Shown here piece by piece: positions 1,826-57,928 of a stretch of 64,000 bases of DNA (position 1 is the stretch's first letter; every line of letters starts with the position of its first letter). The stretch comes from a virus. Location: positions 1 to 64,000 of IMG/VR virus record IMGVR_UViG_3300045988_046952; one strand, written 5' to 3'. A model generated the notes under the pieces. The model was given only the letters and a program-made list of their open reading frames with translations. It did no database searches and had not been told where the DNA came from. A program made the translations under genes and the position numbers.

Positions 1826-2072
1826 CTTGTTTAATCTTCTTTTCCACCTTTCGAAATATCAAGTCTCCGTCAAGTGGACATCTACACTCCATAATACAGT
1901 CACTGGCTTTAAAGTAACAGCCAAAGCACGCGCAACCACTGTCAACGATTTCCACCGGACTACCGTTTACAGTGATAAGGTCTCCTGCCTGTAAAATGGG
2001 TATTAGTTCATTGTCTTCATATTTAAACCTCTGCATATCTAAAGTTAAAAAAGAAGGGCCAAACCCAGACAA
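1767..2072 (-). CDS. Cys-rich hypothetical protein (101 aa)
   Basis: ORF track; multiple Cys pairs; overlaps downstream ORF by 59 nt. Confidence 0.35.
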   Translation of the reverse strand: MSGFGPSFLTLDMQRFKYEDNELIPILQAGDLITVNGSPVEIVDSGCACFGCYFKASDCIMECRCPLDGDLIFRKVEKKIKQDERVEQTKSVAKEEGVYFY

Positions 2073-2283
2073 TCACTAGAGTAGACCTTACCTCATCAGA
2101 AGTAAAGAATAATCTAATAACTAATCCGAATTTGACCCTAAACGGCAGTACGAATATCGTTCTGCGCGATTAGCACTACATTAAATATAACGTAGCCTAA
2201 AGTCCGTTACCATAAACTGATAACAATAATGCCAATGCCTGGCATTAGGTGTGTTGCTAAAAGCAACGAAGAAGAGCCTACAA

Positions 2284-2295
2284 CCCCCCCCCCCC
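2284..2295. repeat. C12 homopolymer tract (intergenic)
   Basis: read directly. Confidence 0.8.
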
Positions 2296-2349
2296 TAGTG
2301 ATATTCTGGCTGGAATGTCTATTCCATAACCTATCACCATACATAAGAA

Positions 2350-2718
2350 CTATTCAAAGTAGTCTGGGAACTTATCTTTTAATATTTCAGATATGTCCAC
2401 GCCGGTCAGTTCAGCCATAGATAATTCTTCCAACATTGCGTCTTCAGAATCGTCTACACTGCTGTCAGCACTGTCAATAAGGTTGAGCAATAATTGAGCT
2501 TTCTCATCAGTCAGCCCGTCTTGTGCCCATTTGCTTACTACTTCTGCAAAGAACTCATCGAACTCGTAAGAAGTCCGCTCATCTTCATCAGCGATTACAT
2601 TCTTCTTAGCAAACAGTTCTTTGATGTCTTCATCTGTAATAGTTCCGGCTTTATCATAAGCCGCGTTCAATGACTCTATAAGAGAGTCTTGTTCATCGAA
2701 TGTCATTGTTGTTAACAA
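2350..2718 (-). CDS. highly acidic protein (122 aa), possible DNA-mimic type
   Basis: ORF track; very D/E rich; TAG stop. Confidence 0.4.
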   Translation of the reverse strand: MLTTMTFDEQDSLIESLNAAYDKAGTITDEDIKELFAKKNVIADEDERTSYEFDEFFAEVVSKWAQDGLTDEKAQLLLNLIDSADSSVDDSEDAMLEELSMAELTGVDISEILKDKFPDYFE

Positions 2719-30041: not shown

Positions 30042-30044
30042 AAG

Positions 30045-30116
30045 TGCCCCATGTTGGACTCGAACCAACGCCATACAAGTTTAGAATTTGCTCTTCTACC
30101 ACTGAAGTAATGGGGC
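30045..30116 (-). tRNA. putative amber suppressor tRNA (anticodon CTA)
   Basis: acceptor GCCCCAT/ATGGGGC, D-arm CTTC-AGTGGTA-GAAG, anticodon loop TTCTAAA (U33, CUA, A37) on stem GCAAA/CTTGT with G:U and A:C at the ends, T-arm GTTGG-TTCGAGT-CCAAC. Confidence 0.5.
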
Positions 30117-34128: not shown

Positions 34129-34467
34129 CTCTTGTTAAATTTATTGTTATGAGAGTCTTTCTTTATTCTAAACAATAAACAAGCGGCATTACGGCAATTG
34201 GACATGCGTTAATCCGCTCGCCACTTACAGACCGTAATGCACACTTGACCAGGCAGGAAAGAGGTTTGCTTGGTTACCTGCCCCACAATATTGATTTGCA
34301 TAGTGGGGCTACGAGGATTCTCTCTACTCGTGATGCTATAAATCGTCTTTTGACGCAAGCACAGGTTTCAACTCTTTAATATAGCCTTTAAGTCACAGAT
34401 GCATTCTAGACTACATCTGCTGGTTCTTCAGACCAAGTTTGCTACCACTACTCGTCAATAGTGGATT

Positions 34468-35965: not shown

Positions 35966-35981
35966 TTTAATTACTTAAATG

Positions 35982-36547
35982 TGGACCTAGAGGGAGTCGA
36001 ACCCTCGTCCAGACAACTCTCATTAATAAGATTACGTGTGTCTCTATTTTATTACATCAGCTGTTGAGTTCAGCATGTAGGTAGTTTTACTAAGAAGCCG
36101 AGTGTTAATTCACCAATTACGTCTCCCTCGTAGGGCTACGACTTAGTTGTTCACAAACTACCAAACTGGGCTTGACCGAACGGTCACTCCACCACTCCAT
36201 TTACGTTGGAGAACGTTTCTATTTGTAACCCATAGATAGGTAGTGGAGATTTCAGCTTTACTAACCTTTGGCTTTCAAGTTAATGCATCTAAGCTTCACT
36301 GTAACCTGTAGGTACTATGACTCTTCCCCGCAGGTCTCGTTATAGCACTTAGATACAAACCTCTTCTGTTTCTAGGTCTCTCCAATTAACCCGACTTAGA
36401 GCTAAATTAATAGATAAGCCAGCAGCTTAGGCTGCCATTCTGTTGTAGTCGATTTCAGCAACTATTGTTTGCATCATTATTAAAGAGTTGGTGCCAACTC
36501 TACACGTCTTACTAACTTGTAATCGCCTGTCAAATCCAGGTAGGCCC
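35982..36547 (-). ncRNA. ssrA: tmRNA (ssrA), tag peptide AEIDYNRMAA
   Basis: 5' GGGCCTACCTGGATTTGACAGGCG (compare E. coli GGGGCTGATTCTGGATTCGACGGG); 3' GGACGAGGGTTCGACTCCCTCTAGGTCCA (compare GGACGCGGGTTCAACTCCCGCCAGCTCCA); acceptor GGGCCTA/TAGGTCC with G3:U70; GCU resume codon at RNA positions 89-91; ORF GCT GAA ATC GAC TAC AAC AGA ATG GCA GCC TAA at 36427-36459. Confidence 0.75.
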
Positions 36548-44597: not shown

Positions 44598-44867
44598 TTG
44601 CCTACCTGGATTACTAAAGACAATATATTTATGACAGGAGAAGAAATTATAGTAACATTTAAAGAGCCTTGGTATAATGATTATACCAGACGATTATACA
44701 CTCAATTATCTGAACAAATGATTAGAGAAGAGATTGAGAGAGTGCATAAAGAACCAATCATTACTAATACTGCATTTGATATAGCAGTAGACAAGGCTTT
44801 CTTAGAGTTACTGCATGACAACAAGGATTTAATTAATATTACAGAACGATACAAGAACCATGAGTAA
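44598..44867 (+). CDS. hypothetical protein (89 aa)
   Basis: ORF track. Confidence 0.45.
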   Translation: MPTWITKDNIFMTGEEIIVTFKEPWYNDYTRRLYTQLSEQMIREEIERVHKEPIITNTAFDIAVDKAFLELLHDNKDLINITERYKNHE

Positions 44868-44897
44868 AATAGCAACAGAATTAGAAGCTAAGACTAT

Positions 44898-44906
44898 GGG
44901 GGGGGG
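44898..44906 (+). repeat. G9 tract immediately after an ATG (AAG ACT ATG G9), at a frame junction
   Basis: read directly. Confidence 0.8.
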
Positions 44907-45074
44907 ACTCTCTCGGTAATTGATAATAAGTGCTGTACTAAAGCTAGAGCACTTGAATTAGGATGTCAGATTAAAAGTGGATTTAGTTATACTGATAATC
45001 AGTTAGTAGAGTTAGAAGGCATAGAGGCAGCTATAACTGCTCCAAATGTAATCCTTCATTATGGTTGGCAGGAT

Positions 45075-45506
45075 ATGCCAATTAATAATATACAGCGATT
45101 TAGAGTACGTTTCTCATTTGTTAATCAGAGTTCGGTGGATGGAGACCCATTTAAGTATTCTGATAATGCTACTTACTTTACAATTACTCCAAGATTAGAG
45201 CAAGGAGAACAAACGTACACTAAGACTTTAGCAAACCCTCTTAAATATTACTTAGAGAAACTAGCACTTCCTAACCAAGACCCATATAATACACCTGTTT
45301 GGATACGTTTTGAGGGATACATGATGCTTAGGCAAGTGTCTCAAATTATATTAGCAGTAGATTCTCAATCTGAGAATTGGGCAGAAGGAGTAACATTCCC
45401 TTCATCTGGAAGGTGGGTCAAAATGAATAATTCTGGTAGAGTATTTAGATTTACTGGTGGGGAAACAGACCTAAACATAGAACTGTATACAGCGTCAGCG
45501 CAATGA
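45075..45506 (+). CDS. hypothetical protein (143 aa as annotated; frame open upstream to 44892 and likely fused to the ATG at 44860 via the G9 tract)
   Basis: ORF track plus manual frame analysis. Confidence 0.45.
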   Translation: MPINNIQRFRVRFSFVNQSSVDGDPFKYSDNATYFTITPRLEQGEQTYTKTLANPLKYYLEKLALPNQDPYNTPVWIRFEGYMMLRQVSQIILAVDSQSENWAEGVTFPSSGRWVKMNNSGRVFRFTGGETDLNIELYTASAQ

Positions 45507-46782: not shown

Positions 46783-49700
46783 CTATTTATTCTTAAATTT
46801 AGCATTAGATACTTTAATAATATCTTCGTTATAAGCGGCTTCCGGGTCAAAGATGACTGGTTTACCGTTAAGCATACCTACATTCTCTGTGGTAATATCT
46901 CCGACTGTAATCTTGGAGTTCTTATAGGATGAATCATTAATTCTAGTCCATCCTTTAGCTTCAAACATCCTTGCCAACTCGTCAAGTACACTCATCTTTT
47001 CAATAGACCCTACTCTGGTTTGAGTAAACACTGGATACATACCCTTCTCTCCTTGTAAGTAACCTTGAAGTTCTGCGGGCACTGCCCCAGGTACCTCATC
47101 TCTAGCTCTATACATTCTAAGACCTTCACGTAATTCATCCAAAGTTTTATACCCTCCTTCGGTTGGTTTGTACACTTTAACTACTTTAGTCGGGTCTGTC
47201 TTATGTTTAAACACCACATGCTTAGTTCCTTGTGTAGGGAGAATTTCTCCAAAGATGTCCCCAGTAGGTTCGAAGATACCATCTACCATTGTAGCTGTTC
47301 CTATCTTAGGATATGGATTGTTCTCAGTTGGGATAACTGTCTTACCAGTTGGCTTATGAGTCATAGTACCATTCTTCAAGTCATCTCTAAGACTAAAGAT
47401 TACTTGATTGTTAGAGTATCCATTATCATATACATTGTTAAAGATTACTCCATCTGCGCCCATTTTATCTGCTGCTCGCTCTAATGCTGCTCTATTAGGT
47501 ACATCACCTACAGTAACTATAGGTCTCTCCAACTCCAAGTCTCCTTCCACTCTATAAGGTCTCTTAGCAAATCTGTCTCTAGCCGCAGCTGCCTTCTCAG
47601 CTTTACCTTGAACAGAGTGGTTAGCTGCTGTTCTAGGATTACCTACTTTACCTTGATACCATATACCAGCTTCAGGAGCACCTTCGTAAACAGCATCCCA
47701 TCTTTCTGGGCTATGCAATTGTAGTTTGTTGGAAGTATTAGCATCGTGTGTTACATGTATGGATTGCCTAGGTCCCCAACCTACATTATTGGGCAATGGT
47801 TTAACTGAAGGAGTTCCTTTGTCTATAGTCTTACTAATTACTCTAGCTCTAGCCCATTTGTTACCGCCTATTGCTAGGTCCTCCACTGGTTTAGGTCTAG
47901 GCCCGAACTTATTAAAACCATGCAGTCCTATATATGAACCAGGATTAGTAAATTCTGCAAGGACGGGATTCATTCCAGCATTAGTCATCATGTCTCCCCA
48001 TGTATTATATTTACCTTTGCTAAGTTCCCTAGTAGCTTCATCAACTGTTGTACTGCCTATAGCTCCACTTAATACTGGAAGAGGTCCAAATATTGCACCT
48101 GTTAATAATGTGCTAACATAAGGTGCGGCTTCTCTCCTTCCTCTATCTACAGCTCCTGCTAGATTAATATTCCTAGGAGTAACTGTTACTTCTGGCAAAG
48201 TTACATTATTCATACCATTCTCATTAATAACTGGCAATACTATATTACCTCTCTTATCATAACCTCCCATATATTTAATAGGTTGTGCAGGTTCTTGATA
48301 TTTAATAATCATACCATTCTCACCTTTAGGAATACCATTATATACCCCAGTAAGTACTTTAGCATAATTAGTAGCTTCTGCATATCTTCTCTTACCTTTA
48401 TTAGAACCAGTAAGCTTAGCTACAAACTTATTAATATCATCATTCTCATCAAAGTCATATAGTCTCTTTAAGAATTGTATCTTATCTGCTGCATACTCAT
48501 CCATAGAATTATAAGACCTAAACTTCTGCTTAATAGCTTCACCTTTAGCATTCTTATCATTACCAGTTACATAATCACCTTTCCATGAACTACCAGTAGT
48601 TAAATTACCAAAGTTGTACTTACCTTGTGCAGACTTACCCCAACTAGATTCTAATGCGTCTTGTGCTAATAACATTCTAATTGCATTATCATTAGTAATA
48701 CCTGCCTTCTTATAGGCATTAATAAGTTCTGTAGTCCATTGTCTTCTATTAGTATATGGACTCTTCCAAGTTGAGTTGGCAGTTTTAGTAACAGGTTTAT
48801 CAGTAACAGATTTACTAGCTACTGGCTTATTAATTACTGGCTCTGCTATAGGATTATTAGCTACTACATCAGGTTCATTAGTATCTCTTACTGGTACTAC
48901 TAATGCTTCCGGCTTATCGTAAACTGTATTAAAGTTATATTCACTGAATGGATTAATAGGATTAGTAATGTCAGTATAATCTATTGTAGGATTACTTACT
49001 GGATTATAACTAACAAATCTCATTCCTTGTTGAGCTTTCTTAATTCGCTTCTTATAGGTTGGACGACTTGATTTGATGAACTTCTTGCGCACATCCCTCT
49101 TACCGTTAATCTCTTCTTGTTTCTTTAGCAGAGGGGACTTCTTAAAATCAAATCTTCCACCATGTGCCATAGTTACTAATTCCGGATTTCTAACAGACTT
49201 ACCTTCAATCCATATAGGATTAGATTGCTGTAATATGAAAGGACGACCTACTTTATCCATTAATGCAGCTTGTTTAACTACTCTAACAGTTTCTGAGTTG
49301 ACAGGTTTGCCTCCCCAGCGTTTAGCGTAATCAGCTGGATTAAATTTCCACATATCTTGAGAAGTCTGTCTTAATTTACCTTTGCTCATTTGAAACTTAA
49401 CCAAGCGTCCAGCAACATCATCAATAGGACCTATATAATCAGTTCCTGGCTGCCTAAAGGTCATGAACTCTTTATCTCCCATACGCATTACTGGTTCAGC
49501 TTCCTTACCAATAATTTTACCAATCGGATTCTTTCCTGCGTATTCTGTAAATTCAGAAGCTTCTTGAAATTTCAATGGCCTACCAGAGGGTACTACTGCA
49601 CTCATTTCGTATCTTCTGTTATATATCCCAGGATAGAGCTGTTCATATCTATCCCCATGACTAAATCCTCTTCTTGCTTCGTTACGGCTAATAGGTTTGA

Positions 49701-50538
49701 TATTACTAGTCGCTTTATTAAAGAACATTCTTTTAACTACTGGATTCTCATCAAATATATATTTAGCTAATAGATTCCTACCTTCTAAATTTCCTCCACC
49801 TAGTATTGAAGAACCTGTGTAGTCGGCTGGCATTGTTTTTATATCTTGCAAACTTACTGATGCATTACCGTTAGTTCTCTTGGCAGCTTTATAAGCAGCC
49901 ACTTTTAATGGTAATTTCTTTACCTTAGATAGAAATGGAGTAATTCTGTTAGTTGCAGCCATTACTAAGTTAGTAGGGGTTCTGGCTTCTTTGTTAAAAA
50001 CCCAATGGTTCTTGTTAATTGGATTCCAAGCTAAGTCAGCATCACCTTTAATTGATTTAGTTATTAACTTGTCCTTTCCAATCTTATATCCTTTAGCACC
50101 ACCATACCAAGCTCCTGGATTAGTATAAACTCCAATTTCGGACGGAATGCCAGTTTTATCTTCCAACCAGTTACCCCAGCCCCCGGTAAGCTTATCCACA
50201 GTCATATTACCTAAAGCTCCTACTACAACAGCGGCTGGAGTTGTTACTAATGCAGCACCAGCTGCTGAAGGAAGTATAGTTCTTTCTATTCCAACTAAAG
50301 GATTAGTCTCATTGGACATAGAAGCCCTGAATCTGGCTTTAGCTCCTTTAATAGGATGCCAATAGTCTCTATTTCTTTCAGCAGCTGACCTGGTATCATT
50401 AGAAGGTTCTCCACCTAAATCTACAATGGAATACTGTCTAGGTTTAGCTTTAATAGGTTCATGAATTTCTGGCCTAACTACTTTAGTATTATCGGACTCT
50501 ATGGTGTTTCCTTGTTGTAGTTTAGGTATTACTTTCAT
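46783..50538 (-). CDS. large virion protein (1251 aa) with GH73 glucosaminidase domain (tape-measure or ejection-protein-like)
   Basis: LAQDALESSWGKSAQGKYNFGNLTTG...RSYNSMDEYAADKIQFL matches FlgJ/GH73 ESGWGKS...NLFGI...YDS..ES..DY motifs. Confidence 0.65.
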   Translation of the reverse strand: MKVIPKLQQGNTIESDNTKVVRPEIHEPIKAKPRQYSIVDLGGEPSNDTRSAAERNRDYWHPIKGAKARFRASMSNETNPLVGIERTILPSAAGAALVTTPAAVVVGALGNMTVDKLTGGWGNWLEDKTGIPSEIGVYTNPGAWYGGAKGYKIGKDKLITKSIKGDADLAWNPINKNHWVFNKEARTPTNLVMAATNRITPFLSKVKKLPLKVAAYKAAKRTNGNASVSLQDIKTMPADYTGSSILGGGNLEGRNLLAKYIFDENPVVKRMFFNKATSNIKPISRNEARRGFSHGDRYEQLYPGIYNRRYEMSAVVPSGRPLKFQEASEFTEYAGKNPIGKIIGKEAEPVMRMGDKEFMTFRQPGTDYIGPIDDVAGRLVKFQMSKGKLRQTSQDMWKFNPADYAKRWGGKPVNSETVRVVKQAALMDKVGRPFILQQSNPIWIEGKSVRNPELVTMAHGGRFDFKKSPLLKKQEEINGKRDVRKKFIKSSRPTYKKRIKKAQQGMRFVSYNPVSNPTIDYTDITNPINPFSEYNFNTVYDKPEALVVPVRDTNEPDVVANNPIAEPVINKPVASKSVTDKPVTKTANSTWKSPYTNRRQWTTELINAYKKAGITNDNAIRMLLAQDALESSWGKSAQGKYNFGNLTTGSSWKGDYVTGNDKNAKGEAIKQKFRSYNSMDEYAADKIQFLKRLYDFDENDDINKFVAKLTGSNKGKRRYAEATNYAKVLTGVYNGIPKGENGMIIKYQEPAQPIKYMGGYDKRGNIVLPVINENGMNNVTLPEVTVTPRNINLAGAVDRGRREAAPYVSTLLTGAIFGPLPVLSGAIGSTTVDEATRELSKGKYNTWGDMMTNAGMNPVLAEFTNPGSYIGLHGFNKFGPRPKPVEDLAIGGNKWARARVISKTIDKGTPSVKPLPNNVGWGPRQSIHVTHDANTSNKLQLHSPERWDAVYEGAPEAGIWYQGKVGNPRTAANHSVQGKAEKAAAARDRFAKRPYRVEGDLELERPIVTVGDVPNRAALERAADKMGADGVIFNNVYDNGYSNNQVIFSLRDDLKNGTMTHKPTGKTVIPTENNPYPKIGTATMVDGIFEPTGDIFGEILPTQGTKHVVFKHKTDPTKVVKVYKPTEGGYKTLDELREGLRMYRARDEVPGAVPAELQGYLQGEKGMYPVFTQTRVGSIEKMSVLDELARMFEAKGWTRINDSSYKNSKITVGDITTENVGMLNGKPVIFDPEAAYNEDIIKVSNAKFKNK

Positions 50539-50780
50539 TATTTATTCGATTTATCGTTATTGGTGAATCTCTTCCATATTCCTGTTACTGAATCTATGCC
50601 AAGCAATCCCATACAACACAACAGGACTGTGTCTATCATTAATGGGGCTTGAATTACGTTTATTGCACAGTATATTAACACTCCCAAGCAGACAAACCAC
50701 CCTACTACTCCGCAGAGTCTCTTAGATGATATGCCAGAGTGGGATGTGAATACTTGCTTTAAGAATGTTACAAACTTCAT
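50538..50780 (-). CDS. small membrane protein (80 aa)
   Basis: ORF track; two TM helices. Confidence 0.45.
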   Translation of the reverse strand: MKFVTFLKQVFTSHSGISSKRLCGVVGWFVCLGVLIYCAINVIQAPLMIDTVLLCCMGLLGIDSVTGIWKRFTNNDKSNK

Positions 50781-51322
50781 TATATAATTACATTTATAGA
50801 AATATTAGCTGTGTCACCTCCTATATATGCCTGATTTATTGGTATTTCAGTAGTTACCCCAGATTGGCATACTGCGTTATGTGTTACACTATCTGCATCT
50901 ACAGTCACCCTGTATGTACTGAAATATCCAGTGAACAATAATTTAGAGACATTAGTTAAATCAGTTGGTAAATTAAAGTGGAAGTTTCTGTCAAAGAAAG
51001 TTGCCCCTTGATAGTCTAGAGTTCCAGACCTAGGAATTGTTATAAACCCATCTGGAACTCCATCTATGTAAACATCTGCTACAAAGTCATAGGATTTAGA
51101 CGTAAGCCCAGAGTTAGTTATTGAAACATGTATATTGAAGTCATACTGGAATGTTGACAACTGTATATCCTCTTCCTTAACTAACTGATTATTAGCGTAA
51201 TTATCGTTAGTTTCAAGTCCGAAGAACTCTACTCTATCTCTAGTGGCACACTTGGTTGGAGTATTTGTACCTCCACCAGCTAAATTAATTAAATATTGTT
51301 CTGTTGCAATTTTATTTGTCAT
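50780..51322 (-). CDS. N/T/S-rich structural-like protein (180 aa); co-framed with upstream ORF across a TAG
   Basis: ORF track; same frame as 51335-51763. Confidence 0.45.
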   Translation of the reverse strand: MTNKIATEQYLINLAGGGTNTPTKCATRDRVEFFGLETNDNYANNQLVKEEDIQLSTFQYDFNIHVSITNSGLTSKSYDFVADVYIDGVPDGFITIPRSGTLDYQGATFFDRNFHFNLPTDLTNVSKLLFTGYFSTYRVTVDADSVTHNAVCQSGVTTEIPINQAYIGGDTANISINVII

Positions 51323-51334
51323 TTTAAATACTTG

Positions 51335-51763
51335 CTATGTATTGTTTATACACATAACGGCAAGTAGACCCTGTACTGGTATATTCTGATTAGTTCCTAT
51401 AGTAAGTCTATCTGTTTCATAATTAGAATAGTGATTTATATTCTTTGCATTATTTAATAGGACTGCTACGTAAATATTACTTCCAATCACACTATTGCCA
51501 AACAAAGCTACATTTCTTATAACACCTGCTATAGGGTATACCACCATAGATGAAGCAGGAATATCTGGTGTAGCCGATGTGCTTTGACCATACATATCCA
51601 TGATTGATATACCCATTGTAGTGTCTGTAGTAGTGTTATTAAAGAATATTAGGGTGCGGCCGTTTAGTGAACTGTTTAATAAATCTATAGCGTCAGCAAT
51701 ACCCCCCCCCCGACGGTAGGTTATCATTGAACTGTTGCTTAGTAATGCATCTATTGTTCGCAA
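51335..51763 (-). CDS. N/T/S-rich structural-like protein (142 aa) with a G10 tract near the 5' end and a TAG stop
   Basis: ORF track; RRGGG encoded by the G10 run. Confidence 0.45.
   Translation of the reverse strand: MRTIDALLSNSSMITYRRGGGIADAIDLLNSSLNGRTLIFFNNTTTDTTMGISIMDMYGQSTSATPDIPASSMVVYPIAGVIRNVALFGNSVIGSNIYVAVLLNNAKNINHYSNYETDRLTIGTNQNIPVQGLLAVMCINNT
51702..51711 (-). repeat. G10 tract (C10 on plus) inside the 5' end of ORF 51335-51763
   Basis: read directly. Confidence 0.8.
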
Positions 51764-51829
51764 CTCCGTCTAAGCTCAAGCCTTCTGCTCTGGCTTCAGC
51801 TGCTGTTACTAATTCATTAGTGCTTTCCA

Positions 51830-52033
51830 TTATTCTTGATATTCTCTTAAATTACCAATTGTTACTTCAAATTCATCTGATTTCATGTAGGGTGATACAT
51901 CTGCATCTTTAGCAGCTTCGTTCAAACAGAACATGTCTGAAGGAAACGATAGTGCCTTTACCCTTATTTGCTTAAGTAGTCTGGAGTGTTTGGCTTTAGA
52001 CCAAACCCAGACGTCAAATATAAAATTTCTCAT
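51830..52033 (-). CDS. hypothetical protein (67 aa)
   Basis: ORF track. Confidence 0.35.
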   Translation of the reverse strand: MRNFIFDVWVWSKAKHSRLLKQIRVKALSFPSDMFCLNEAAKDADVSPYMKSDEFEVTIGNLREYQE

Positions 52034-52064
52034 ACTGCGATTAATGTACTTTAATTCTTAAATG

Positions 52065-52457
52065 TTAAGAATTACTAAGTGTAGAAGCAATCCACTTTTG
52101 ATTGGAGCCTTTGTTAAGGCTAAAGTGCTGTAAACCATCTTGACTTACATTTACGTATAATGTGAACAAATTAGCCATTGGAATTCCGACTATTGTCACA
52201 CTAATACATGTTGGCGTACCATTAGATACTCCATAATACAGTAACTGAAATGGGACCATGTCTGTCATATTAGACTTCACAATCTCCATTACAGCAGTAT
52301 CAGCACTGTTAATCTCTATATTACTACTTCTACCTGGATAAATCAAATCTTGTGTTGTTAAAACTAGGGTCTGAACCCCCCCCCCCATAGACTTGAGTGC
52401 ATCATTCACTTGTTTAGTGGTAGGGCATTTGTTGTCTTCATTTTGAATTAAAGCCAT
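52065..52457 (-). CDS. hypothetical protein (130 aa) with ATG-G11 tract in its 5' region
   Basis: ORF track; KSMGGGV encoded by AAG TCT ATG G11. Confidence 0.45.
   Translation of the reverse strand: MALIQNEDNKCPTTKQVNDALKSMGGGVQTLVLTTQDLIYPGRSSNIEINSADTAVMEIVKSNMTDMVPFQLLYYGVSNGTPTCISVTIVGIPMANLFTLYVNVSQDGLQHFSLNKGSNQKWIASTLSNS
52376..52386 (-). repeat. ATG-G11 tract (C11 on plus) inside the 5' end of ORF 52065-52457
   Basis: read directly. Confidence 0.8.
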
Positions 52458-52465
52458 GATTGTTA

Positions 52466-52846
52466 TTATTTAATAATTCTACGTTTAATTTGCACACCTC
52501 TCTTAGCTATTAGCATAGTATTACTTCTTTTGTTGTTAGCATTACTAGCGAAGGTATTATGCAGTTTAGCTATCTCGTCATCACTAAGGGTATTAAACCC
52601 TGAAGGTATTTTAGCTCCCTTAGTTCTCATCTCTTGAATATCTGTACCTTTTAATTGCCTGTTGGGGTCAATATAATAGTTACCATTTGCATCTTTCATG
52701 TTCACATTAGCTCCTCTAAATCCTTGTTGTTGAACATTAACTCTGTCTGGATTGTCTTTATTCTCCTTGGGATTAGGTCTTGCTACTGTTCCTTGCTGTG
52801 CCTTAATAATCCCTCTTCCTTTAGTTGATATTCTCATAATATCCAC
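52466..52846 (-). CDS. basic hypothetical protein (126 aa)
   Basis: ORF track. Confidence 0.4.
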   Translation of the reverse strand: MDIMRISTKGRGIIKAQQGTVARPNPKENKDNPDRVNVQQQGFRGANVNMKDANGNYYIDPNRQLKGTDIQEMRTKGAKIPSGFNTLSDDEIAKLHNTFASNANNKRSNTMLIAKRGVQIKRRIIK

Positions 52847-56877: not shown

Positions 56878-57101
56878 TGGAAGAGAAAGTGTTTTATCAA
56901 CCAGGAGATGTAGTAACATTAAGACAAGACATCCCATATAAACCTCAGATGATTGTAGTTAAGAAAGAGACGATGACGTTTAGACCATCTAAGGATGAGA
57001 AGAAAGATGAATATTTCAAGGGTATTAGATGTAGATGGTTCTCTACAAGAGGAGAGCTACAAGAAGCTATCTTTAATACTAAAGACTTAATTAAACTATA
57101 A
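56877..57101 (+). CDS. hypothetical protein (74 aa)
   Basis: ORF track; ATGA coupling. Confidence 0.4.
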   Translation: MEEKVFYQPGDVVTLRQDIPYKPQMIVVKKETMTFRPSKDEKKDEYFKGIRCRWFSTRGELQEAIFNTKDLIKL

Positions 57102-57928
57102 TGGCAACTAAGTTTCAACAAGGTGGGCAGGACGACCAAGAGTTGTTCTCTGCCTACCTTATTAAGTTATTTAAGCCTAAGTCTCAGCAGGAGTTTGAGG
57201 ATACTATATCCAAACTCTCAGAGAGGGAAATTAATGAAATCTATAAACAATACAAGAGTATGGAGAATAATCAAACTATCATGGCTAAGATGGGAGCCAA
57301 AATTAACTACATTAGCAGATTGCAAGGTAAGTGTCCAGAAGGTTATGAGGTAGAGAGATTCATGGCTGGAGGATGTGTTAAATGTAGAAGGAAAGCAATG
57401 GCTGAAGGCAGTAAAGCTATGGACGTATTCAAAGATAAATGTGGAGGTAAAGCCAAGAGACGCATTAAGAAGAGCGAGAATGGTGATAAAATAGCAGTTA
57501 ATAAGACTGATACTGTACACACCAGTAAGGGAATATATAATGTTAGTAATAAGAAGCTCCCTTATAAGAAGATGTCCAAAGCAGATTACAAAGGACTACC
57601 TTTAAAAGACAAAATGAAAGTTGATATGAAAGACCAGGCTAACGGCAGAGGTGCTAGCGGAGCAGGTGCAACTAGAGGTAGTAATATAGGTAAAAAGTTA
57701 AGAGGTGGCACTATTACTTCGTTCAAGTGCGGAGGAAGGGCTAAGAAGAGAATTAAGAAGAATATGGGCGGAACTGTTAGCAATAAATGGAGTATTCCTA
57801 GTAAAGCTAGCGGTGATGCTATTAAACACATTAAAGGTGGACCAGGCTCAGCAGATAGCACTAGAGAAATGAAATTTAATGGGTTTCAGAGGAAAGCACT
57901 AGCTGGTAAGCCTTATAAAAGCAAATAA
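57101..57928 (+). CDS. highly basic protein with repeated KCGG(K/R)AK(R/K)RIKK motif (275 aa)
   Basis: ORF track; likely nucleic-acid binding. Confidence 0.45.
   Translation: MATKFQQGGQDDQELFSAYLIKLFKPKSQQEFEDTISKLSEREINEIYKQYKSMENNQTIMAKMGAKINYISRLQGKCPEGYEVERFMAGGCVKCRRKAMAEGSKAMDVFKDKCGGKAKRRIKKSENGDKIAVNKTDTVHTSKGIYNVSNKKLPYKKMSKADYKGLPLKDKMKVDMKDQANGRGASGAGATRGSNIGKKLRGGTITSFKCGGRAKKRIKKNMGGTVSNKWSIPSKASGDAIKHIKGGPGSADSTREMKFNGFQRKALAGKPYKSK

Follow-up and report, generated by a model that had tools for sequence, protein, structure and literature searches.

Poly-G tracts of variable length as probable frame switches in small genes of a crAss-like phage

Why should a phage genome of low GC content keep uninterrupted runs of nine or more G residues, most of them near the 5' ends of a few small genes? 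The question is raised by the first 64,000 nucleotides of the virus record IMGVR_UViG_3300045988_046952 (IMG/VR; this stretch is called the window below), which contain four such runs. Three of them lie in genes that we call A, B and C and one lies between genes; two further genes enter the account, D, which has no such run, and E, which has one and is found in relatives only. An original prediction, made from the letters of this DNA, had pointed to C10 at 51702-51711 and C11 at 52376-52386 on the plus strand, both of which are exactly placed and are poly-G on the minus coding strand, and had likened them to contingency loci. Comparison with related sequences makes it likely that the G runs are indeed contingency loci, that is, hypermutable switches that work by slipped-strand mispairing.

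The GC content of the window is 37.5%, and only four G/C runs of at least 6 nucleotides occur in it, each of them at least 9 long: C12 at 2284-2295, G9 at 44898-44906, and the C10 and C11 just named (plus-strand letters). At all four, the strand that carries poly-G is the sense strand of the nearby genes. Runs of this length had been called highly unexpected, and the numbers bear this out: a first-order Markov model of the window gives 0.03 runs of at least 9 against the 4 observed, and the four tracts provide 10 overlapping G9 matches against a mean of 0.04 in dinucleotide-preserving shuffles. Under the same model shorter runs are depleted, with no run of 6-8 where 4.5 are expected and 82 runs of 4-5 where 122 are expected. 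This depletion, together with the four long runs, implies that the genome generally avoids G/C runs and has kept these four.

How the tracts sit in their genes is clearest for gene B (52065..52457, minus strand, 130 amino acids (aa)). Its G11, at 52376..52386 on the coding strand, includes the G of ATG codon 24 and encodes M-G-G-G-(V); at this length the gene is in frame (ON), and the earlier description of this open reading frame (ORF), with K22-S23-M24-G25-G26-G27, is correct. The full-length peptide across the tract reads ...ALKSMGGGVQTLVLTTQDLIYPGR. By frame arithmetic B is also full-length at G8 (129 aa). Gene B has 2110 homologues, and among the top 120 of them 67 read ...SMGGGV (130 aa) and 45 read ...SMGGV (129 aa); both out-of-frame truncation products also exist as gene calls (P0254, P0255).

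Gene A (51335..51830, minus strand) is split by its tract, a G10 on the coding strand at 51702..51711 that covers codons 40-43. The reading from the ATG at 51830, MESTNELV...NDNLPSGGG, ends at G10 with a TGA after 45 aa (51830..51693), and the long body of the gene (IADAIDLL...CINNT, to 51335) sits in a different frame. Frame arithmetic makes the protein full-length, at 163, 164 or 165 aa, only at G6, G9 and G12, so that in the window, at G10, gene A is frameshifted and OFF for the full-length protein. The frame-corrected protein of 164 aa is found intact in other metagenomes (P0121, 99% identical; 311 homologues), and protein records of its in-frame length classes have 1-4 Gly. The ORF first proposed here, 51335-51763 with a TTG start and RRGGG at codons 18-21, turns out to be an out-of-frame upstream reading, the real start being the ATG at 51830.

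Gene C (44860..45506, plus strand) has its G9 at 44898..44906, in codons 13-16, and is full-length (214-215 aa) only at G7 or G10; at the G9 of the window it is OFF and gives a 19-aa product, MSKIATELEAKTMGGGLSR. In relatives this tract is 8-10 long, three interrupted versions included. The flanks of the B and C tracts are alike, as had been noticed (AAG TCT ATG-Gn and AAG ACT ATG-Gn). The tracts had also been placed just after start codons; they are 5'-proximal, but actually lie 13-43 codons in. They stand immediately after a conserved N-terminal module in A and B, and within such a module in C and E.

A homopolymer 13-43 codons into an ORF means that each change by one base toggles the frame of the gene body. 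Changes in homopolymer length by slipped-strand mispairing are well established. We propose that the polymerase would slip on the G run during replication of the phage genome, adding or removing one G, and that such a change would shift the body into or out of the frame of the start codon. The window would then represent one state among several, with A (G10) OFF, B (G11) ON and C (G9) OFF, and with the fourth tract (G12) in a structured intergenic spacer. Were each gene to switch independently, a lineage would keep yielding progeny with varied combinations of proteins, and the mixed virions would act as a bet-hedge.

A switch of this kind predicts that close relatives differ in tract length. 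Relatives were gathered from IMG/VR, ENA, JGI and Logan contigs by means of flank patterns with a variable gap, giving ~55-65 independent related assemblies with the same flanks. Counts were pooled over distinct sequence contexts, and exact duplicates were collapsed; near-duplicate genomes across collections may somewhat inflate the counts, and the relatives are consensus assemblies, part of them at low coverage. Tract A was 6 long in 3 cases, 7 in 8, 8 in 7, 9 in 23, 10 in 9 and 11 in 1, and was interrupted in 2; tract B was 6 long in 2, 7 in 9, 8 in 17, 9 in 22, 10 in 6 and 11 in 3, and was interrupted in 7. The modal length is 9 at both. Comparison across relatives, which the original prediction had suggested, thus gives a span of 6-11 at A and at B among near-identical genomes; far from being invariant or missing from orthologs, the tract is present in every ortholog recovered, and its length varies.

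The same variation is seen where everything around the tract is constant. In one group of relatives with identical flanks of 100 nucleotides (nt) on either side, tract A was 9, 9, 6 and 8 long, and in another 9, 9, 10, 10 and 6; for tract B, one such group had 10, 9 and 7 and another 9, 8, 7, 8 and 10. In GenBank the nearest record is MT835470.1, from a human faecal phage; it is 97% identical to the window and has identical flanks and G9 at both A and B. Compared with the G10 and G11 of the window, both states are therefore reversed, A being ON and B out of frame (this record does not span the regions of 2284 and 44898). Among 45 genomes all nine of the nine joint states of A and B were found, implying that the two sites switch independently, and A or B is out of frame in about half of the genomes.

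Could the differences be sequencing or assembly errors at homopolymers, around a true tract of constant length? Many of the contigs have a coverage of only 2-6x, and some platforms are prone to errors at homopolymers. The observed spread nevertheless covers 6-11, rather than one base on either side of a single value, and assemblies of higher coverage (10x or more) differ too: by coverage, tract B was 8 (180x), 8 (82x), 6 (21x), 7 (19x) and 10 (10.5x). The pattern is the same across independent collections and assemblers, and interrupted variants such as GGGGGGAGGGG recur. Finally, in an alignment of 24 genomes over 1.2 kb (90.6-98.5% identity), the indels that are not multiples of three are confined to the two tracts; the only other indels, three in number, are of 3, 9 and 24 nt and all in frame. 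We conclude that error as the source of the variation is extremely improbable. The same alignment supports the earlier likening to contingency loci, the length changes being the sole frameshifting indels of the region.

These 24 genomes also bear on the idea that the tracts are incidental, being either a flexible glycine linker or part of decaying pseudogenes in which frameshifts are neutral. Two observations speak for it: the tracts encode Gly2-4 at or near the module boundary (in A and B, directly behind the module), and the ratio of nonsynonymous to synonymous substitution (dN/dS) is ~1.3 in the body of A. The N-terminal parts are strongly constrained, however, with a dN/dS of 0.04 in A and of 0.14 in B, where the body has 0.53; the body frames of A and B contain zero stops in the 24 genomes, ON or OFF; and intact full-length proteins are abundant. 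Nor does glycine account for the G runs. GGG is the rarest Gly codon (8.5% of Gly codons in the 37 long ORFs of the window), and none of the six other Gly-Gly-Gly tripeptides in these ORFs uses a G run, including the homologous one in gene D. With G/C runs of 6-8 otherwise absent from the window, the tracts are maintained at the DNA level, against codon and composition bias, rather than for their Gly codons. An incidental origin is accordingly very hard to credit.

The neighbouring genes provide internal comparisons. A gene of 67 aa (orf67; 51830..52033, minus strand) lies between B and A, has no tract and served as an internal control: it is strongly conserved (dN/dS 0.06), its sole indel in the 24 genomes is one in-frame deletion of 24 nt, and its dN is 0.02, against 0.21 for the body of B. 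Alleles of B are as low as 58% identical within one lineage (58-83% in the protein body), and the tract is still present. Gene D (50780..51322, minus strand, 180 aa) belongs with C and E as a paralog and shares their N-terminal module. Its homologous Gly-Gly-Gly (...LAGGGT...) is encoded GGT-GGA-GGT, which makes it non-slippery and keeps D constitutively in frame.

A further alternative is that the G runs are recoding signals, acting through ribosomal frameshifting or RNA-polymerase slippage, so that both products would come from every genome. Frameshift sites follow the formal slippery pattern X XXY YYZ, which a G run matches, and long homopolymers can yield heterogeneous transcripts; recoding could allow leaky expression from OFF genomes and may accompany slippage at the DNA level. 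Recoding sites, however, keep their length and frame, whereas here near-identical genomes differ in length over the range 6-11 and each site shows all three frame relations. The commonest protein calls, moreover, are simple in-frame products. Because neither tract length nor frame relation is conserved, recoding cannot be the main device, and we regard it as quite unlikely.

Taken together, the loci show a homopolymer inside an ORF that exceeds the length of about 7 needed for slippage, polymorphic length between conserved flanks, switching of the frame, intact OFF alleles and maintenance of the tract, all of which are marks of contingency loci. Two points weigh against hypermutable switching as we have described it. 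First, heterogeneity within a population, and the frequency and reversibility of switching, are inferred from differences between assemblies. Second, each of the three coding sites has 9 as its commonest length, whatever frame results; lengths therefore look as if they were set mainly by mutation, with selection for ON or OFF only a possibility, and the length distribution suggests a mutation-driven equilibrium. Regulation through a G-quadruplex was considered separately and dropped, because one lone G run is unable to form an intramolecular quadruplex.

The switch at A and B may have more than two positions. In both genes the conserved Asn-Asp pair shortly before the tract, encoded AAT GAT, contains an alternative, out-of-frame ATG, which reaches the body when the tract has the length of a full-length state plus one base. 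In A this ATG (51725..51727, minus strand; from the AAT-GAT codons of the conserved ND motif) opens at G7 or G10 an N-terminally truncated protein of 129-130 aa (MITYRRGGGIADA...), and the window copy is in that state. In B the ATG (52403..52405, minus strand; within ATGATG) opens at G6, G9 and G12 a truncated B of 111-113 aa (MMHSSLWGGVQTL...), which has been called in other assemblies (P0242, P0246). A third state, in which A and B would give an N-terminally truncated product that lacks the conserved module, is thus possible.

Some side observations concern the end of gene A. Its TAG (51335-51337) is followed 12 nt on by the ATG of gene D (51322), which is in frame with A, no further stop intervening, and the TAG with the in-frame spacer is kept in 68 of 69 related sequences. 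After this TAG 184 codons are open; the other TAG-terminated ORFs of the window (12 in total) reach a stop within 1-46 codons. The phage encodes a suppressor tRNA with a CTA anticodon, which reads TAG (30044-30116, minus strand), and read-through by it would give a fusion A-Q-QVFK-D of ~349 aa, with the predicted peptide ...CINNTQQVFKMTNK... at the junction. No in-frame TAG occurs in the genes for TerL, the portal and the fibre cluster. Since 11 of the 70 ORFs of at least 100 aa terminate in TAG, any recoding of TAG is at most partial. Fusions of another kind occur among database proteins: P0243, P0244, P0258, P0260 and P0261 begin with the N-terminus of B and continue into the C-terminal part of D or A or into the beginning of the 67-aa gene, which suggests deletion or recombination between paralogs in some genomes, or else assembly chimeras.

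Gene E would add a fifth switchable gene. It encodes 361 aa and is found at 9016-10101 of the relative L022 and also in L013, L015, L023 and L035, with its own tract of G9-10, and it is ON in one of these five loci. It lies in an accessory island of 2-4 kb just downstream of a gene of 1251 aa; the window lacks the island (its place would be between ~46504 and ~46733). The sequence of E runs MSKIVTQDKLNELTG...GKGGG followed by YCPHYQ..., and contains an Asp-box-like STDRGNNWTT. That all three extensions hold jointly, namely the third truncated state at A and B, an A-D fusion made through the suppressor tRNA, and the switchable island gene E, we consider improbable. If true, the joint scheme would amount to a combinatorial, heritable-but-reversible repertoire of surface proteins or adhesins that mirrors the phase-variable capsules of Bacteroidota hosts.

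The fourth tract is of a different kind. It is a G12 on the sense strand at 2284..2295 (minus strand), inside a spacer of 314 nt (2349..2036) between two minus-strand genes. In ten contigs chosen because they encode an identical upstream protein, its lengths were 7, 9, 9, 9, 10, 10, 10, 10, 10 and 12, so this tract too is polymorphic. The flank pattern of the window, Gn-TTGTAGG, had no match in IMG/VR; most relatives carry ...Gn-TGTAGG. The spacer folds with -117.5 kcal/mol, against -76.9 +/- 4.2 kcal/mol in shuffles (z = -9.6), and ends in a terminator-like GGGTTTGGCCC-TTCTTTTTT. From this strong folding and the terminator-like end we conclude that the spacer (2036-2349) is probably a structured RNA. 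The gene upstream of the tract (2706..2350) ends in TAG, and an in-frame continuation of 23 codons crosses the tract.

What might the switched proteins do? A and B have in common an N-terminal motif of 21 residues, N(N/K)(R)C(I/P)T(K/T)(Q/K)Q(F/V)ND(N/A)L, which extends up to the tract, and their bodies are not shared. In an hhalign comparison of the two families only this motif aligns (probability 31%); with the alignment limited to these 21 residues, we make no claim that A and B are paralogs over their whole length. Likewise, C, D and E share an N-terminal module of ~55 residues (M-S/T-x-K-I-A/V-T...GGG...C...NQLV-K/E-EEDI) and have unrelated bodies; C and D are 28% identical over 96 aa, with an E value of 9e-6 that comes from a four-sequence database and hence is only indicative. 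The A-E proteins are lineage-restricted ORFans and consist of a conserved N-terminal module and a fast-evolving, exchangeable body.

Such a division, into a conserved N-terminal part (dN/dS 0.04-0.14) and a variable C-terminal part (0.5-1.3), is one that tail fibres and receptor-binding proteins would be expected to show. Chimeric B/D and B/A products, and the presence in the operon of a 1251-aa protein with a glucosaminidase domain, point in the same direction. Moreover, the motif of A and B recurs, as IPSSKAIKDAIAT, close to the N-terminus of a protein of 533 aa in the tail-fibre-like cluster of relatives, and the body of E is predicted to be a beta-propeller resembling lectins and BNR glycosidases (a BFVD fold search with E returned generic propellers only, at TM scores of 0.2-0.3). 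We therefore tentatively prefer a reading in which the protein would be held on the virion by its N-terminal module and the bodies would be alternative domains for binding host surfaces, such as adhesins. Switching would on this view be a way of hedging host recognition, the surfaces of Bacteroidota hosts being phase-variable.

A number of findings weigh against this assignment of function. A-E have no match in Pfam, PHROG, PDB sequences or annotated phages, and A and B are small (130-164 aa). The match to IPSSKAIKDAIAT is the only other one in a six-frame translation of 86 kb, and the pattern was defined post hoc. An AlphaFold2 model of B, from a 30-row alignment of at least 90% identity, reached a mean confidence score (pLDDT) of 40.6 and was unusable for a fold search. 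The position of the genes is also unusual for fibres. A-E are not encoded in the structural and tail module but upstream of TerL, conventional fibre genes lying downstream of the portal; A and B are ~6-8 kb from TerL, on the opposite strand, beside genes resembling endonuclease VII and a protease. The tail-fibre-like cluster itself (13117-22202 in the relative L113; genes of 463, 533, 358, 327, 648 and 482 aa) directly follows the portal and a gene of 252 aa, has matches to Phage_fiber_rpt, Peptidase_S74 and tail-fibre PHROGs, and contains no G/C run of at least 6. That the tract genes are late-region, structural-like genes, as had been supposed, is not established, since A-E have no family match and lie outside this cluster. 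Wider searches were equally bare: tblastn of 50,697 phage records with D and E matched only an unannotated close relative, and an exhaustive search of representatives with B gave 21 clusters only, mostly fragments, and no distant relatives.

There is a serious competing view, which we hold to be possible if doubtful: the switching would be the same, but its products would be intracellular host-interaction proteins that either counter a defence system or are sensed by one. The operon of these genes lies apart from the fibre cluster and also encodes an endonuclease VII/HNH-like protein, a protease-like protein and a small membrane protein. The genes also behave as accessory ones, A or B being out of frame in so many genomes and E lying in an island absent here. 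Contingency loci driven by defence have a precedent in T2 and T4 (PMC12633550). An OFF state would let a fraction of the progeny evade the defence, in parallel with agt and rIIA of T-even phages. The conserved N-terminal module, the exchangeable fast-evolving bodies, the propeller of E and the motif shared with the fibre cluster are a better fit to surface binders, though they are not decisive, and binding to host surfaces stays the reading that we favour.

Similar devices are known elsewhere. Haemophilus, Neisseria, Campylobacter and Helicobacter have phase-variable surface genes with poly-G/C tracts. Like these bacterial contingency loci, the present ones combine a 5'-proximal homopolymer, an ON/OFF frame, an intact OFF ORF and length polymorphism between close relatives; unlike them, they are carried by a virulent phage, so that switching would take place in phage replication and be sorted among virions, not cells. 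Other phages diversify host-interaction proteins by different means: the G segment of Mu is a tail-fibre cassette inverted by site-specific recombination. Diversity-generating retroelements (DGRs) occur in crAss-like Zeta and Epsilon phages (PMC12386605). DGRs and invertible cassettes resemble the poly-G loci in acting without awaiting point mutation, but they depend on reverse-transcriptase A-mutagenesis or site-specific inversion, neither of which is seen or needed at the tract loci.

The nearest likeness is to the Campylobacter phages of the genus Fletchervirus, in which hypermutable poly-G tracts make receptor-binding proteins phase-variable (Sorensen et al. 2021, Cell Rep 35:109214, as cited in PMC10579305 and PMC12823448). 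As these citing papers describe it, that system, like the present one as we read it, has poly-G inside phage genes, length changes that switch expression and give mixed progeny, and several tracts per genome; the modal length near 9 found here also parallels the G9 mode that PMC3401435 mentions for tracts of the host, C. jejuni. The phage lineage and the proteins are unrelated, however, and homology to the Fletchervirus poly-G genes was not found, A, B, C, D and E having no PHROG match. By those accounts receptor-binding targets were shown by experiment in Fletchervirus, whereas here the function is a proposal. The present loci further differ in forming paralog sets with a common N-terminal module, one paralog (D) having a non-slippery Gly3, and in including an intergenic tract.

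In T2 and T4, simple-sequence repeats in ORFs act as contingency loci through reversible frameshifts by polymerase slippage, which serve bet-hedging (Gomez, Barrick and Waters 2025, bioRxiv, PMC12633550). Slippage at ORF repeats, reversible frameshifts and bet-hedging are what the two systems would have in common. The T2 agt loci, though, are mononucleotide A repeats (one at bases 288-296), and T2 has 168 simple-sequence repeats of at least 6, of any base, scattered over all gene classes (PMC12633550); here only four tracts are found in 64 kb, all of them sense-strand poly-G of at least 9 in a genome otherwise cleared of G/C runs, and they are concentrated in one small gene family. On present sequence comparisons, the loci work like the Fletchervirus and the T2/T4 systems and are homologous to neither. 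In the papers on crAss-like phages that we searched, the adaptive devices named are DGRs, stop-codon recoding and polymerase switching, and homopolymer switching is not among them; poly-G switching is apparently undescribed so far for these phages.

The sequence is that of a distant crAss-like phage of ~180 kb: contigs of relatives reach ~185 kb, and TerL is at most 32-33% identical to that of named Crassvirales (partial alignments). Genome size and the sources of the contigs hint at the Zeta group, a membership that we do not claim. The host is presumably a member of the Bacteroidota; the locus was not found in representatives of bacterial genomes and gives no host assignment of its own. The window encodes 28 tRNA genes, all on the minus strand, in an array from 3.2 to 37.4 kb. 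Two structured RNAs are on the same strand: a transfer-messenger RNA at 35979-36547 (Rfam RF00023, 91 bits against a gathering score of 47), whose span of 569 nt for a model of 374 positions suggests an insertion, and a RAGATH-34 RNA at 34358-34464 (RF03103, a full-length match with 120.6 bits against a gathering score of 60.7). A scan for sigma-70 promoters and terminators from 50.4 to 54.4 kb found no enrichment over shuffles.

Around the tract genes, the protein of 1251 aa encoded in the operon includes a glucosaminidase domain at residues 609-734 and weakly matches a polyvalent-protein kinase, and the protease-like gene at 52834-53214 matches phrog_15610. The proteins encoded at 46783-50538 (minus), 52466-52846 (minus) and 57101-57928 (plus) have similar basic N-termini of the form ...K-x-QQG..., namely MKVIPKLQQGN..., MRISTKGRGIIKAQQGT... 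and MATKFQQGGQ..., and might together form a group that is processed or ejected.

In about half of the assemblies the tract genes come out of gene calling split or truncated, and such genes should be annotated as single switchable genes. The spectrum of tract lengths can be read from existing metagenomic reads, longitudinal samples included; among the sequencing runs that contain the phage are SRR13348831, SRR36307677, SRR31227382, ERR13991742 and ERR12816404. The viruses of the human gut are dominated by crAss-like phages, and the present lineage is a very common one in its own right, its portal protein being indexed in more than 5,000 blocks of an assembly collection and protein B in more than 2,000 sequence clusters. 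For phages that coexist for years with hosts whose surfaces vary in phase, loci of this kind would provide a concrete and testable answer to how that coexistence is maintained.

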